Positions 32,752 to 40,421 of a stretch of 64,000 nucleotides of DNA are shown here, piece by piece. This stretch comes from Candidatus Gastranaerophilales bacterium (GTDB taxonomy: Bacteria; Cyanobacteriota; Vampirovibrionia; Gastranaerophilales; Gastranaerophilaceae), in assembly GCA_944323735.1 (NCBI GenBank), contig CALUTO010000006.1:8000-71999 (forward strand), in the 5' to 3' direction. Both the position numbers and the translations under genes were made by a program. The stretch's first letter is position 1. Each line of letters opens with the position of its first letter. A model generated the notes under the pieces. That model did not search any database. It had not been told where the DNA came from and saw nothing but the letters and a program-made list of their open reading frames with translations.

Positions 32752-33219
32752 ATGAAAAATTGTGTAAAGTACTGCGTTTTAGGTCTGTCTGCTTTTGTTA
32801 TAGGTATGTCAGTAAATAATTTTGCTGTTTCTGATGTACCGTCAAACTATAAAGTAGCTGTTGTTGATGTGCAGAAGGTTGTGGCTGCATCTTCCCAGGT
32901 AAAAGCACTGAAAACAGAACAGCAGAAAAAATTTCAGGATTTAAATACATTTGTTAAAAATGCAAATGCTGCAGTAAATAAAGAAAAAGATGCAGCTAAG
33001 AAAAAAGCTCTGCAGGATAAGTACAACAAAGAATACAATACAAAAAGAGCTGCAATTCAAAAAGATTATGCTGCAAAACTCTCATCAATTGATAAAAATA
33101 TCTCATCAGTTATTGCTGCTAAAGCAAAACAGGATAACTACAATCTGGTACTGGCAAAGGGCGTTGTTCTTTCAGGCGGTACAGATATAACAGCTGAAGT
33201 TACGAAATTAATCAAGTAA
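32752..33219 (+). CDS. skp: OmpH/Skp-family periplasmic chaperone
   Basis: 155 aa. Signal peptide, then KVAVVDVQKVVAASSQVKALKTEQQKKFQDL and a long Lys/Ala/Gln coiled region. Confidence 0.75.
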   Translation: MKNCVKYCVLGLSAFVIGMSVNNFAVSDVPSNYKVAVVDVQKVVAASSQVKALKTEQQKKFQDLNTFVKNANAAVNKEKDAAKKKALQDKYNKEYNTKRAAIQKDYAAKLSSIDKNISSVIAAKAKQDNYNLVLAKGVVLSGGTDITAEVTKLIK

Positions 33220-33232
33220 AAAATATTCTTAT

Positions 33233-33270
33233 AAAAAGCCCTGACTAACAATCAGGGCTTTTTTATTTTT
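33233..33270. terminator. bidirectional terminator (skp / unknown operon)
   Basis: AAAAAGCCCTGA-ctaacaa-TCAGGGCTTTTTTATTTTTT. Confidence 0.85.
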
Positions 33271-35416: not shown

Positions 35417-36105
35417 TTTTCACCGTCTTTTTGTTCGTTTTCCTGACTTTCGTCCCTGTGTCTTTCGGGGTTAAACAGGATTTCTTTCAGATTCTTTAAA
35501 TCAAACAGTCTTTTTTCTTCTTCAACCCGTTTTTCTTCCTCTTCGTTGTCTGCTTCGGCTATTCCGAAAAGGTTAAACAGCTTCTTTTTCAATTCTCTTA
35601 ACTTATCGGAAATTTTCTTTTCCACTGCTGCTTTCAGTTCTCCAAAAACTGCCGTCAGTTTGTCAGTAATTTCAGCTATTTTTTCTTTTACAGAGTTTAG
35701 CATGTTTGATAATGATGTGTGCAAACCGCTAAATACTGTTTGTACAAAGCGAATTGCCGGCATGATTATGTTGTTTGTTACTGATATCAGTGTATTTGAT
35801 ACCGGAGCAGGCAGAAATTTTATCATCAAATCCCGCATTTGCTCGGCGAACTGTGCAGCTGCCTTCATCATCGTTTTTTGTGCCTGCAAAAGAGCTTCTG
35901 TCTGTGCTTCTTCTTTTGCGAGTTTTTGGGCTTTCATCATTTGTCCGATGGCATAGCACTGACTCCAGGTGAGTTCTCCGGGTTTGTGCTCCGTAACTCT
36001 TGACGCTCCGCCGCCGCCTGCTCCGCTGCAGACAGGACAGGCACCCGGCGGTAATCCGTGCGGGCAGGTTCCGGTTCTAACACTCCCTGAAATCTGTGTA
36101 GACAT
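35413..36105 (-). CDS. hypothetical zinc-knuckle plus amphipathic-helix protein, first gene of unknown operon
   Basis: 230 aa. N-terminus TGTCPHGLPPGACPVCSGAGGGG (C-x-H...C-x-x-C-x-G-x-G), then Ala/Lys/Gln-rich helices and an acidic tail. ATGA overlap with the next gene. Confidence 0.75.
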   Translation of the reverse strand: MSTQISGSVRTGTCPHGLPPGACPVCSGAGGGGASRVTEHKPGELTWSQCYAIGQMMKAQKLAKEEAQTEALLQAQKTMMKAAAQFAEQMRDLMIKFLPAPVSNTLISVTNNIIMPAIRFVQTVFSGLHTSLSNMLNSVKEKIAEITDKLTAVFGELKAAVEKKISDKLRELKKKLFNLFGIAEADNEEEEKRVEEEKRLFDLKNLKEILFNPERHRDESQENEQKDGEK

Positions 36106-36341
36106 TAAAAAATCCCTGTTTATCTGTAAACCCGGGATACTTAAAGCTCATTATGCGCCTTGACCTAAGCTCGAAGTACCGGCATATTTAGGGGAAAACA
36201 AGTAATCATACTGTGTTTTCTATGCGGTAAAAGTTTTTTGTTATTTTCTTTATTCCAAACAAATTTACCGTTTCCCTCAGAGTATTCCGGCTGTTACGGC
36301 TGCGGCTCAGTCGGGGATTTCCGCCCCAGTTTCCTCTGTTT
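36106..36341 (-). promoter_or_regulatory. structured 5' leader, riboswitch-like (partial resemblance to cobalamin riboswitch core) with terminator/SD-sequestering hairpin
   Basis: Minus-strand GC-rich island AACAGAGGAAACUGGGGCGGAAAUCCCCGACUGAGCCGCAGCCGUAACAGCCGGAAUACUCUGAGGGAAACGG. 3' hairpin AUCCCGGGUUUA-caga-UAAACAGGGAU plus UUUUU abuts the AUG (36112-36138). No clear B12 box, so ligand class is uncertain. The confidence given is for the cobalamin class; I rate a cis-regulatory leader of some kind at ~0.6. Confidence 0.4.
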
Positions 36342-36346
36342 CGTAC

Positions 36347-36375
36347 ATTCTAAAATACAGGTGTTGCATTGTCAA
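36347..36375 (-). promoter_or_regulatory. sigma-70 promoter of the unknown operon
   Basis: Minus strand TTGACA - 17 nt - TAGAAT; consensus -35 and near-consensus -10. Confidence 0.65.
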
Positions 36376-36442
36376 TTATTTGTGAATTTATGTCAATTTT
36401 TTTCATAAAAATGTTTTTATATAACTAAGAGAGGATAAAATT

Positions 36443-37066
36443 ATGCAAAATTATAATATTAACTATTATAATTCAATTGATAATATTTCTGAAAATTCAC
36501 AGCATATCATGGAGGAAATTATTTTGACACCATGGAATGCACTAAACGATGCTCAGCAAAATTATGTTGTAAACCAGTTGAAAAAGTGCGGAATGTATTC
36601 AGTGTATGAGAATGTCAGGATTTCTAAAACAACAGATGCATTAAAAAGTATGGACAGTGCTCTTTATTATATATTCAGGGAAAATGATAAATTTGTGAAA
36701 ATTGCAATGGGGCAGCCGGAGGGCTTTTTCTTCAGTGATGAAAAAACCGCTGAGAAAATTCTTCAGCGTATCTTTGAACACCCGCAGTTTGATAAATCAC
36801 TCTGGACAAGCAGAAAATACAGAAAAGCTTCTCAGATTTTGAATGATATTACGAGAATGCCTGACTGCAGCATAAAATATTATCAGGAAAATAAAGAATC
36901 TTTTGAAAAGAGAAAAAGACAGTCGCTTCTGGCAAGAGAAACCGCACTTTCTTTAAATTTAAAGCGCAAGCTTAAACTCTATTTTACAAATCCGAATATT
37001 GTTAATACAAGGGATTATGAAATATTTGAAAGCAGGAAATATCCCAGTTCTTTTATAATTACTTAA
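36443..37066 (+). CDS. hypothetical protein
   Basis: 207-aa ORF, GAGAGGA SD upstream, own terminator downstream. No motif recognised. Confidence 0.65.
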   Translation: MQNYNINYYNSIDNISENSQHIMEEIILTPWNALNDAQQNYVVNQLKKCGMYSVYENVRISKTTDALKSMDSALYYIFRENDKFVKIAMGQPEGFFFSDEKTAEKILQRIFEHPQFDKSLWTSRKYRKASQILNDITRMPDCSIKYYQENKESFEKRKRQSLLARETALSLNLKRKLKLYFTNPNIVNTRDYEIFESRKYPSSFIIT

Positions 37067-37739: not shown

Positions 37740-38588
37740 TTAAGTTTTTAAATGGTATTTCTTAAAAAGTTCAAGTGTGTTCTTCATTAAACAGCATATT
37801 GTCATTGGTCCGACGCCGCCCGGCACGGGTGTAATGTATGATGCTTTGTCTTTTACTCTTTCAAAATCAATATCACCTTTTATTTTTCCGTCTGTATCCC
37901 TTGTTATTCCTACATCTATGACTACCGCACCCTCTTTAACCATTTCTTTTTTGACAAATTCAGGTTTACCTGCCGCAGAAATAAGTATATCTGCATTTTT
38001 TGTAAAATCAGCGAGATTTTCGGTTTTGCTGTGGCATACGGTCACTGTCGCACTATTATTCAGCAGTAGCCAGGAAAGAGGTCTGCCGACAATATTTGAC
38101 CTCCCTATTATGACAGCATGTTTCCCTTCTGCTGATATACCGTATTCTTTGAGAAGAAGCATTATTCCTGCAGGCGTGCACGGAAAAAGAGTTGTTTCCA
38201 TATTTAGTGCTATTTTTGCCGTGTTATACGGATGAAAGCAGTCCACATCTTTGTCCGGTCTGATTGACTCAATAATTTTTGAGCTGTCAATGTGTGCAGG
38301 CAGAGGAAGCTGTACGAGAATTGCATGAACATTCTCATCTCTGTTGAGCTTTTCTACTTCTTCAATCAAACTGTTTTGTGAAATATCTTCGGGCAGCTCT
38401 TTTACGATTGACTCAAATCCCAGATATCCGGCAGTTTTTTGTTTGTTGTTTACATAAATTTTGCTGGCTGCATCATTTCCTGCAATTATGACGGCAAGAC
38501 ACGGTTTATTTTGTAAATTTTCTGTCTCAAGTTTAATTTCTTCAAGTATTTTTTTTGATACGGCTTTGCCGTCTATTATTATTGACAT
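37740..38588 (-). CDS. folD: bifunctional methylenetetrahydrofolate dehydrogenase/methenyl-THF cyclohydrolase
   Basis: 282 aa. YVNNKQKTAGYLG, VQLPLP, GRSNIVGRPL, PVPGGVGPMT. Confidence 0.95.
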   Translation of the reverse strand: MSIIIDGKAVSKKILEEIKLETENLQNKPCLAVIIAGNDAASKIYVNNKQKTAGYLGFESIVKELPEDISQNSLIEEVEKLNRDENVHAILVQLPLPAHIDSSKIIESIRPDKDVDCFHPYNTAKIALNMETTLFPCTPAGIMLLLKEYGISAEGKHAVIIGRSNIVGRPLSWLLLNNSATVTVCHSKTENLADFTKNADILISAAGKPEFVKKEMVKEGAVVIDVGITRDTDGKIKGDIDFERVKDKASYITPVPGGVGPMTICCLMKNTLELFKKYHLKT

Positions 38589-38589
38589 A

Positions 38590-39348
38590 TTACCCCTTGT
38601 TTCTTAAGTCAGGCAGATTTAATCTGAAATAGAATTGTTTAAGTGCTTCTGATACAGTAGCTGAATTTCTGGAGAGTGATTTGCCGGCAAGATTTTCGTC
38701 TTCAGGTATTATTGCCAGCATGTCCAGACTATATTTTGTAAGAAGCTCATGAATTTTGGGCATATCATCGGGTTTTACCCTGTTTATTACCAGTCCCATC
38801 TGTCCGCCTGCAGCATATTTTGCGGAAAATTCTTCAATGCGTTTAGCCAGCAGAAGTGATTCTTCTGTCGGAAGCGCGAGCACCAGTGTAACATCTATAT
38901 CTGTGTCCACAACCTGATTCAGATATTTCAAATCAAATTCACAGTCAAATATAACAATGTCATACGCAGAAATCAGTTTTGTGACTGCGTCTCTCATAAG
39001 AGAGGTCATTGGACATCGGCAGTCCTTTGACGGCACAAGCCATGAAACAATCAAATCAACATTGTCCTCAACAGGAACAATTATATCCTCAAGTGCCCAT
39101 TCAATATACTCCTGTTTAGACATTTTCTCGGGTAATCCTGTTTTGAGTTCGTGCTTGCCGCTTCTTATGCCGTAAATTGTTTTTCTTATATCTTTTCCGT
39201 ATGTGTGTCCGAGTTCTCCGGAGAGGTCGTTGTCAAAAAGCAGAATACTTTTTTCAGGGTATATTTCCCTGAATAGTTTTGCAAAACCTTTTACTAAAGT
39301 AGTTTTTCCGCTTCCGCCTTTTCCTGTTAGCGCAAAAGTTATGGGCAT
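38590..39348 (-). CDS. CooC-like P-loop metallochaperone ATPase (MinD/ParA superfamily)
   Basis: 252 aa. GKGGSGKTT deviant Walker A. SKDCRCPMTSLMRD matches the C-x-C-P metal motif of CooC (R. rubrum GSGCVCPEHALVR, from memory). Confidence 0.65.
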   Translation of the reverse strand: MPITFALTGKGGSGKTTLVKGFAKLFREIYPEKSILLFDNDLSGELGHTYGKDIRKTIYGIRSGKHELKTGLPEKMSKQEYIEWALEDIIVPVEDNVDLIVSWLVPSKDCRCPMTSLMRDAVTKLISAYDIVIFDCEFDLKYLNQVVDTDIDVTLVLALPTEESLLLAKRIEEFSAKYAAGGQMGLVINRVKPDDMPKIHELLTKYSLDMLAIIPEDENLAGKSLSRNSATVSEALKQFYFRLNLPDLRNKG

Positions 39349-40421
39349 TTAGACCTCCGTTTTGTTAATTCTGCGGATAAATCACACACCAGCGTCATTG
39401 CCCTGTCCGCAAGTTCTACGGAAAGAGAGCCTGCGCCGCAGGAGGGTGTCAGGATACTTTGTTTTTCTATTAGTGATTCGGGTATTCCCTTTTCCGAAAG
39501 TGATTTTACTGCGTCATAATATATGTCAGCCAGCTCTTTTAAACTGATTTTTTTGAGTGCATCTGAATCTAATGTCGGAACCAGTCCCCAGGCGATATAA
39601 CCTCCGTTTTCCAAAAAAGTTTTTATTTTTCCGGCATAAGGTACAAGGCTTTTTGCAAAGAAAAACGCATCGAGATTTATAATATCAACTTTTGAGTCAA
39701 TAAGTACAGACCAGTCAGACTTTCCGCAGCAATGAATTCCGCTCATTGCTCCAAATTCCCTAACAGTTTTTGCTATTTCCGAAAAAGCTTCAGTTAAATC
39801 CTCTTTTGTAATGGTTACAAAGGCAGATGTTCCGTACTGCGACATTACCGGTTCATCGAAAAAGATAATAGGCGTTATTTCGGGGTTTATTTCTTTTATT
39901 TTATGTATTTGCCATATTGCTTTTAAGGTAACTGCTTTTACCAGAATTTCACGGCAAGTTTCGTCATAAAAAGAACATTGCAAATCTCCGTCGCAAATAC
40001 TGGTACCCCACGTGAAAGCACCTGTAACATGTCCTTTGGCAAATTTATAGTTTTTATTTTTCAGTTTTTCAAAAAACAGATTTATTGCATTGGAATATGG
40101 CGGAGTTATTGCATATTTTTCAAGTTTCGAGAAGTTTTTTTCGTTTACTATCTCTTCGTAGTCCATGAAAAACTCTTCCAGTTGAATAAAAAATTCATCT
40201 GAGGTTGTGTTGAAAATGTATTTGTCTTTCTGTTCATCATAATATATGCCGGGGATACCTTGAATGTACTGCACGGTCATATCTTCATGTCTGTCAACTG
40301 CTCCCAGCTGCGGCCAGAAAGGGATATCTGTAAATTTCTCAAATATCATATCCACTGCTGTTTTTGAATCGGTATAAGGCAGACTTCCTATTGCTGTCGG
40401 CTTTAATGATAAATTATCCAC
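39339..40421 (-). CDS. core MetE-like (cobalamin-independent methionine synthase C-terminal / UROD-fold) methyltransferase
   Basis: 360 aa, GTG start after GGAG. TAIGSLPY, FFDEPVMS, GIHCCG and TPSCGAG correspond to the substrate and zinc-ligand motifs of short MetE-type enzymes. Confidence 0.6.
   Translation of the reverse strand: MDNLSLKPTAIGSLPYTDSKTAVDMIFEKFTDIPFWPQLGAVDRHEDMTVQYIQGIPGIYYDEQKDKYIFNTTSDEFFIQLEEFFMDYEEIVNEKNFSKLEKYAITPPYSNAINLFFEKLKNKNYKFAKGHVTGAFTWGTSICDGDLQCSFYDETCREILVKAVTLKAIWQIHKIKEINPEITPIIFFDEPVMSQYGTSAFVTITKEDLTEAFSEIAKTVREFGAMSGIHCCGKSDWSVLIDSKVDIINLDAFFFAKSLVPYAGKIKTFLENGGYIAWGLVPTLDSDALKKISLKELADIYYDAVKSLSEKGIPESLIEKQSILTPSCGAGSLSVELADRAMTLVCDLSAELTKRRSKCP

Follow-up and report, generated by a model that had tools for sequence, protein, structure and literature searches.

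A putative class-II cobalamin riboswitch upstream of a three-gene operon in Gastranaerophilales

The leader and its operon

We analysed 64,000 nucleotides (nt) of a genome of a Candidatus Gastranaerophilales bacterium (assembly GCA_944323735.1, contig CALUTO010000006.1, positions 8,000 to 71,999; hereafter the window), in which a three-gene operon on the minus strand is preceded by an untranslated leader of about 235 nt that runs up to the AUG at 36105. Judging mainly from comparison with related genomes, this leader is very probably a class-II cobalamin riboswitch, which senses a corrinoid (vitamin B12) and represses the operon. An initial annotation of the same DNA had described a promoter, a GC-rich island, a leader of this length and a terminal hairpin that sequesters the Shine-Dalgarno (SD) sequence, and all of these lie on the minus strand where it had placed them. 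The promoter, TTGACA-17-TAGAAT, is of the sigma-70 type; it agrees with the consensus at 11 of 12 positions, and no other site in the 4.5 kb that were scanned has a better match, although it shares first place. GC content is 0.60 at 36280-36339, compared with 0.15-0.30 in the flanking spacer, and the remainder of the leader is AT-rich. The features of the locus are collected in Table 1.

Table 1. Features of the leader, the operon and related aptamer copies
Feature	Position	Strand	Description
-35 hexamer TTGACA	36375-36370	minus	17-nt spacer to the -10 hexamer
-10 hexamer TAGAAT	36352-36347	minus	predicted transcription start about 36341-36339, 1-3 nt before P3
Putative class-II cobalamin aptamer, four-way junction P3-P6	36338-36278	minus	61 nt; CAGAG GAAAC UGGGG-CGGAAAU-CCCCG AC UGA-GCC-GCA G CCG-UAACAGC-CGG AAUA CUCUG
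P3, J3/4 and J6/3		minus	P3 CAGAG/CUCUG; J3/4 GAAAC; J6/3 AAUA; from the RF01689 alignment
P4/L4	36328-36312	minus	UGGGG-CGGAAAU-CCCCG; 7-nt L4 at the position of the class-II conserved T-loop
P5/L5	36309-36301	minus	UGA-GCC-GCA; L5 core GCCG (36306-36303), proposed kissing-loop partner
P6/L6	36299-36287	minus	CCG-UAACAGC-CGG; short 7-nt L6, without the class-I peripheral extension
GCCGCAGCCGUAA	~36306-36294	minus	read directly in the sequence
B12-box equivalent AGCCGGAAUACUCUG	36292-36278	minus	L6 end, P6 3' strand, J6/3, P3 3' strand
Predicted insertion domain	36276-36192	minus	85 nt, AT-rich; closed by GGGAAAC/GUUUUCCC; inner hairpin CGGUAAA/UUUUACCG
P13-like hairpin	36183-36157	minus	GCCGGUAC-UUCGAGCUUAG-GUCAAGGC; L13 core CG(A)GC 36173-36169
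Predicted antiterminator/anti-sequestor hairpin	36182-36132	minus	CCGGUACUU.GAGCUUA...UGAGCUU.AAGUA..CCGG; 5' arm shared with P13, 3' arm overlapping the 5' arm of the terminal hairpin
Predicted terminator/SD-sequestering hairpin	36138-36127 and 36122-36112	minus	AUCCCGGGUUUA (36138-36127), loop CAGA, UAAACAGGGAU (36122-36112); U6 36112-36107, one A, AUG at 36105
Gene 1	36105-35413	minus	230 aa; N-terminal GTCPHGLPxGACPxCxG Cys3His knuckle, then long helices
Gene 2	35416-33857	minus	519 aa, all-helical; start overlaps the gene 1 stop
Gene 3	33838-33263	minus	about 178-191 aa; best conserved of the three
Aptamer copies before nrdD-nrdG	L026:4183-4250; L032:4185-4252; L067:4170-4237; L062:5694-5760; L060:2742-2859; L065:4818-4933	minus	

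From its sequence, the gene 1 product is a Cys3His/coiled-coil protein, and its N-terminal motif is invariant. Several hydrophobic segments in the gene 2 product are read as membrane-spanning. The three genes are intact in all 80 of the genomic loci described below, with variable neighbours, and the homologues of their products all come from Gastranaerophilales, are unnamed and lack Pfam domains. Searches with the operon proteins against Pfam, NCBIfam, PADLOC, PHROGs and PDB sequences returned nothing significant. AlphaFold models were all-helical and of low confidence (predicted local distance difference test scores of 59.9 and 55.5), and Foldseek against PDB gave no fold match, with a best E-value of 0.3 and template modelling scores below 0.3. 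A likeness to ClyA-type helical proteins that appeared in Foldseek was weak and non-significant, and we disregarded it. Between the end of the operon (33263) and a convergent OmpH-like gene (32752-33219) lies a strong 12-bp hairpin (33233-33263) flanked by A-runs and T-runs, which looks like a bidirectional terminator at the 3' end of the operon.

Aptamer homology, conservation and covariation

A permissive local scan of positions 36050-36450 (401 nt) against 4227 Rfam families identified RF01689 (AdoCbl-II), a class-II cobalamin aptamer formerly named AdoCbl-variant (PMC2864571). The match covers 36347-36272 of the minus strand and the full length of the model (positions 1-81), with a score of 30.5 bits and an E-value of 2.6e-5, while all other families gave only eukaryotic microRNA, small nucleolar RNA and internal ribosome entry site noise at E > 1. 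The initial annotation had likened the leader to the core of the class-I riboswitch of E. coli btuB; a cobalamin core is indeed present, but the closest comparator is class II (AdoCbl-II/AdoCbl-variant, env8 type). The conserved core, consisting of J3/4 GGAAA, L4, GCCGCAxCCGU and the AGYCGGAA of J6/3 (the “B12 box”), matches the RF01689 consensus, and 24 columns are invariant across 70 sequences including the window. Two smaller readings of the core had to be revised. The annotation had found no canonical B12 box and had named CCCCUAAAUAUGCCGG as the nearest candidate, but that sequence falls at the junction of the insertion helix and P13, and the equivalent of the box in the RF01689 alignment is AGCCGGAAUACUCUG, which aligns to the consensus AGUCcGAGcGCCaC and is also able to pair with AGUAUCCCGG (36141-36132). 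Similarly, a “second GGGAA block” (GAGGGAAACGG, about 36278-36268) that had been counted as part of the core lies outside the aptamer, in an insertion helix specific to the clade, of which it forms the 5' arm.

For a comparative analysis, 80 genomic loci were fetched via homologues of gene 1, all of which belong to Gastranaerophilales (gut Melainabacteria/Vampirovibrionia). The aptamer motif occurs 90-200 nt upstream of gene 1 in 79 of these loci, and the remaining locus is truncated. Sixteen loci were sampled with RF01689, and in 13 of them the match at the same position scored 38.6-48.6 bits, above the gathering score of the family, which is 36.5 bits. Taken together, the family match and the recurrence of the same predicted architecture, from promoter and aptamer to SD hairpin and U-run, upstream of orthologues in 79 of 80 genomes are beyond chance, and the conserved structure upstream of orthologous operons to which the initial annotation had tied its reading was thereby found, with covarying helices. 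Our own covariance model, R1, was built from 70 copies; it gives the window copy 72.9 bits, although the window was part of the R1 seed, and it also recovers the element from a 699-kb scaffold (L081) that was obtained independently.

Covariation was examined in an alignment of 82 distinct sequences. Overall, 92% of the cells in helices are paired, rising to 98% in P4, and nine pairs carry compensatory changes. The covariation score of 0.340 compares with a mean of 0.169 after column shuffling (none of 500 shuffles reached 0.340) and with at most 0.141 in slid controls, figures that are supportive rather than formal probabilities, as the alignment was fitted to the structure and the sequences share ancestry. 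The main signal comes from P4, in which four of five pairs are compensatory (GGGG/CCCC, GAAG/CUUC, GGAG/CUCC and GAUG/CAUC). Covariation is likewise seen in the three inner P3 pairs, and P5 and P6 are either invariant or changed on one side only. In addition, a putative tertiary pair that joins the nucleotide 3' of P4 to the final L6 nucleotide (columns 36/58 of alignment A3; 36311/36290 in the window) covaries, with 37 GC, 31 AU, 4 GU and 3 other combinations. The secondary structure annotated in Rfam does not include this pair. In a few copies a hairpin of 15-50 nt is inserted in L6 (L020:327-414, L031:5778-5862, L034:5816-5900, L041:5799-5883, L053:5804-5885 and the nrdD copies of L060 and L065); the inserted hairpin resembles the class-I P6 peripheral extension, and these copies tend to fall below the RF01689 threshold, those of L020 and L034 having gone unreported in the 16-locus scan.

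The position of the promoter is conserved as well. Among 81 orthologous and paralogous leaders, most have TTGACA or TTGACT 16-18 nt upstream of a -10-like hexamer, and the consensus, TTGAC(A/T)-17-TAnnAT, directly precedes the aptamer in most of them. Of the 81, 78 contain a -10-like hexamer, and in 63 the -35 hexamer matches at least four of six positions. As the -10 hexamer ends only 4-13 nt before P3 in those 78 leaders, there is no room for a P1/J1-3 element, and the conserved promoter position suggests that transcripts begin at or just before P3. In 13 loci (L004, L007, L009, L012-L014, L017-L021, L033 and L039), an inverted repeat TTGACA-N8-9-TGTCAA covers the -35 box and spacer about 20-45 nt upstream of the aptamer; a further regulator, a protein, may use this repeat as its operator. 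The promoter in the window is without this repeat.

Expression platform and proposed switch

Downstream of the aptamer, the leader is predicted to contain a kissing-loop partner, an antiterminator and a terminal hairpin. The P13-like hairpin of the window displays an L13 core, CG(A)GC, that is complementary to L5 with one bulged nucleotide, and a hairpin with a CGNGC loop recurs shortly 3' of the aptamer in relatives, as ACGUGC in one clade and as UUCGRGNUUAG in the clade of the window and a sister clade. In a positional tally, L5 GCCG occurs with L13 CGNGC in 52 of 71 cases (a further nine have CGGGA), L5 GGCG with CGCNC in 7 of 7, and L5 UCCG, found in two copies before nrdD-nrdG, with CGNGA in 2 of 2. 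Across these three states, the bulged, variable position of L13 shifts as pairing with L5 requires. In the L5-L13 kissing loop of cobalamin riboswitches, one or more L13 nucleotides stay unpaired, a feature that is conserved and required for function (PMC5028336). We consider an L5-L13 kissing loop likely in the window leader. The insertion domain that separates the two partners is closed by equivalent G-run/C-run pairings in L001 and L002, the closest relatives of the window, and is absent in most other relatives, in which 10-40 nt separate L13 from the aptamer. If folded, this domain would bring P13 close to the aptamer; it may act as a spacer or as a further regulatory input.

The remaining platform appears to consist of two mutually exclusive structures. 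Folded in isolation, its minimum free energy structure is the antiterminator (-18.7 kcal/mol), and enforcing P13 yields the complete SD-sequestering terminator instead (-15.5 kcal/mol). In this energy model, a kissing loop stabilised by the ligand would have to make up the gap of about 3 kcal/mol. The only SD-like sequence of the leader, AGGGA (36117-36113), is within the 3' arm of the terminal hairpin, and at least 50 of 74 orthologous leaders end in an equivalent hairpin whose 3' arm contains the SD sequence and which precedes a U-run and the AUG; in most leaders the U-run is at least five long and directly follows the stem. The segment upstream of this last hairpin is also complementary to the 3' strand of the aptamer, GGAAYRCU, and the YR dinucleotide tracks the segment: YR is UA with GUAUCC in 11 of 17 cases and CA with GUGUCC in 11 of 22, with almost no cross cases. 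Duplexes between the aptamer 3' strand and the terminator 5' arm are predicted at -6.2 kcal/mol for cognate and -5.1 kcal/mol for non-cognate combinations, a modest difference that is confounded by phylogeny.

In the switch that we propose, transcription would start about 7 nt after TAGAAT, and the RNA would begin essentially at P3. Without ligand, CCGGUACUUCGAGCUUA (36182-36166) would pair with UGAGCUUUAAGUAUCCCGG (36150-36132) to form the antiterminator, and the 3' strand of the aptamer, CCGGAAUACU, may likewise pair with the UGAGCUUUAAGUAUCCCGG segment. This would hold AUCCCGG out of the terminal hairpin, leaving the SD sequence free and the operon on. Binding of a corrinoid in the P3-P6 four-way junction would dock L5 (GCCG) on L13 (CG-A-GC, with one bulge) and stabilise the short P13, which would take the 5' arm of the antiterminator and so release AUCCCGGGUUUA to pair with UAAACAGGGAU. 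The terminal hairpin with its U6, ending 1 nt before the AUG, would then bury the SD sequence, and expression would be turned off by transcription termination, by a block of translation initiation or by both.

Regulon context, competing explanations and significance

Apart from the leaders of the three-gene operon, R1 produced six further matches, on the opposite strand of some loci, and all of them precede nrdD-nrdG, which encode a class III anaerobic ribonucleotide reductase and its activase. In these copies the SD sequence is placed directly in P13 (e.g., CCUCGUGACUAGGAG...AUG) and there is no terminator, so that by sequence they are env8-like translational kissing-loop switches. In L062, two riboswitches stand back to back within one divergent intergenic region. 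B12 elements upstream of nrdDG have been reported to repress this B12-independent isozyme when B12 is available (PMC545781), and the nrdDG copies therefore imply B12-dependent repression of a B12-independent ribonucleotide reductase. This linkage provides the strongest available indication that, in Gastranaerophilales, aptamers of this type respond to a corrinoid. With the full-length RF01689 match, the above-threshold orthologues and the helix covariation, it upholds the central proposal of the initial annotation, a cobalamin-type riboswitch with an SD-sequestering, terminator-like platform.

Several results weigh against this interpretation of the leader. A scan of the whole window at Rfam gathering thresholds gave no match; the annotation had made its reading depend on a covariance-model hit above that threshold, and RF01689 did match the window copy, but below the gathering score. 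Folding of single sequences did not recover the aptamer, and the minimum free energies of leader, aptamer and platform were no better than those of shuffled sequences (z = -1.4, +1.07 and -0.5). The P1 helix and the J1/3 T-loop of canonical class II are absent, the outer P1 of Rfam aligning with three non-canonical pairs, and in about half of the relatives the two outer P3 positions do not pair. The distance from the aptamer to L13 is 102 nt in the window, and long unstructured linkers slow kissing-loop docking (PMC5028336), so that the model needs a folded insertion domain. The covariation of the kissing loop comprises few independent events, and an automated test of cognate and non-cognate L13 in predicted hairpin loops was noisy and degenerate, which is why the positional tally was used instead. 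The U-run could be a mere spacer between the SD sequence and the AUG in an AT-rich genome. Finally, neither the database searches described above nor the fold searches revealed a recognisable B12 link for the operon, and the genes neighbouring it on the 699-kb scaffold have no B12 link either; with regulated genes of this kind, physiology cannot cross-validate the ligand. As single-sequence folding is unsupportive, we make the case from comparative data, and it is this comparative evidence that in our view overrides the sub-threshold score of the window copy.

The same comparative evidence bears on whether the resemblance to RF01689 could be fortuitous or degenerate, that is, a cluster of GC-rich hairpins that senses no ligand, in a leader that is protein-regulated or unregulated. 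The low Rfam score and the unremarkable folding energies would fit such an origin, but structure conserved with compensatory changes in 79 of 80 orthologous loci and in paralogous copies effectively refutes it, and orthologues surpass the gathering score; we regard it as very improbable. The chance that the leader holds a fragment of a flavin mononucleotide (FMN) riboswitch is close to negligible, because this idea of the initial annotation came only from a similarity of GGGGCGGAAAUCCCCGAC, whereas no RF00050 match was found at E <= 10 in the 401 nt with permissive filters, and the junction is of the cobalamin-type four-way form rather than the six-helix FMN fold. It is harder to dismiss a class-II-derived variant that has kept the fold without P1/J1-3 and now senses a particular corrinoid, differing in upper or lower ligand or being cobinamide, or even a non-corrinoid metabolite. 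J1/3 is a key selectivity determinant in class II (PMC6158498), and its absence, the sub-threshold score and a main regulated operon without a recognisable B12 connection would all be accommodated by altered specificity. However, all core positions aligned with RF01689 are conserved, orthologues pass the gathering score, nrdDG as a textbook member of the B12 regulon is under the same aptamer type, and class-II members that lack J1/3 and still bind cobalamin exist, such as that of E. faecalis (PMC6158498). We therefore consider altered specificity improbable.

A different question is how the platform acts. The switch may be purely translational, the hairpin only occluding the SD sequence and the U-run serving as spacer with no termination, and we give this a substantial, though minority, share of the probability. 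The nrdDG copies with their SD-bearing P13 offer a precedent, and the terminal hairpin has a short, bulged stem (about -9.5 kcal/mol) and a U-run that overlaps the spacer and stops 1 nt from the AUG. A consensus terminator scan did not list this hairpin, which we attribute to the bulge. On the other side, the conservation of a U-run directly after the stem argues for termination, as do L003 and L011, where the hairpin and U-run lie well upstream of a separate SD sequence, like a true terminator.

We consider the window RNA to be a divergent, sub-threshold copy of a lineage-specific subtype of class II, and its relationship to characterised elements can be described accordingly. It shares with RF01689, as represented by the env8 HyCbl structure (PDB 4FRN/4FRG), the P3-P6 four-way junction, the GGAAA J3/4, the 7-nt L4, the short L6 and the B12-box-like J6/3, as well as an L5 complementary to a bulged downstream hairpin loop and, going by the nrdDG copies, an apparent OFF switch on a B12 regulon. 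It differs in that the RNA would start at P3 without P1 or J1/3, that its P13 lacks the SD sequence and would exert its effect via an antiterminator and a distinct terminator/SD hairpin, with the 85-nt insertion before P13, and that its score is 6 bits under the gathering threshold. With the class-I Cobalamin family (RF00174, E. coli btuB), which belongs to the same clan (CL00101), the element has in common a homologous core junction, a B12 box and the logic of an L5-L13 pseudoknot or kissing loop. However, the large P6 extension/peripheral domain of class I and its longer B12 box are both missing here, and RF01689 is the best clan member. The eut AdoCbl element of Enterococcus faecalis (cited in PMC6158498) is alike in having a class-II core without an identifiable J1/3, a likeness by description only, and its genetic context is different. 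As for the control of nrdDG by B12 elements (PMC545781), our paralogous copies are alike, whereas the window copy controls a different operon.

Other genes near the operon were noted in passing. A divergent 207-aa open reading frame (36443-37066, plus strand) shares the intergenic region and is kept only in L001 and L002, the two closest relatives. A gene trio at 37740-40421 (minus strand) comprises a FolD-like gene by sequence reading (37740-38588), a P-loop ATPase of the CbiA/CooC type (38590-39348) and a 360-aa protein (39339-40421) for which the only match was weak and MetE-like (NCBIfam PRK00957, E-value 1.5e-4). This trio, which may be a folate/methyl-transfer module, is also near the operon in L016, and no riboswitch was detected before it.

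As the riboswitch class itself is well known, the present finding mainly confirms a correct call, and the RNA is in itself ordinary; the main remaining interest is the function of the lineage-restricted operon. In the library searched, no paper was found that connects Melainabacteria or Gastranaerophilales with cobalamin riboswitches. New transporters and B12-independent isozymes have more than once been recognised through B12 riboswitches, and by analogy with B12 regulons we speculate that the operon functions in corrinoid uptake or handling or provides a B12-independent substitute. The fuller proposition, that the operon represents a new corrinoid-related function of this kind and that the aptamer, lacking P1/J1-3 and coupled to a two-stage platform, is a distinct class-II subtype with its own selectivity, is one that we put forward tentatively and think rather unlikely to hold in full. 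The locus also illustrates that a functional-looking copy can score below the Rfam gathering threshold. For these uncultured, non-photosynthetic gut relatives of cyanobacteria, the riboswitch provides a functional handle on an uncharacterised operon that is present in 80 of 80 loci. Together, the leaders form a natural series of class-II platforms, from the SD sequence within P13 before nrdDG to the apparent relay from P13 through antiterminator to terminator before the three-gene operon, and this series, with its J1/3-less and L6-insertion variants, could inform how corrinoid selectivity is achieved in the gut.

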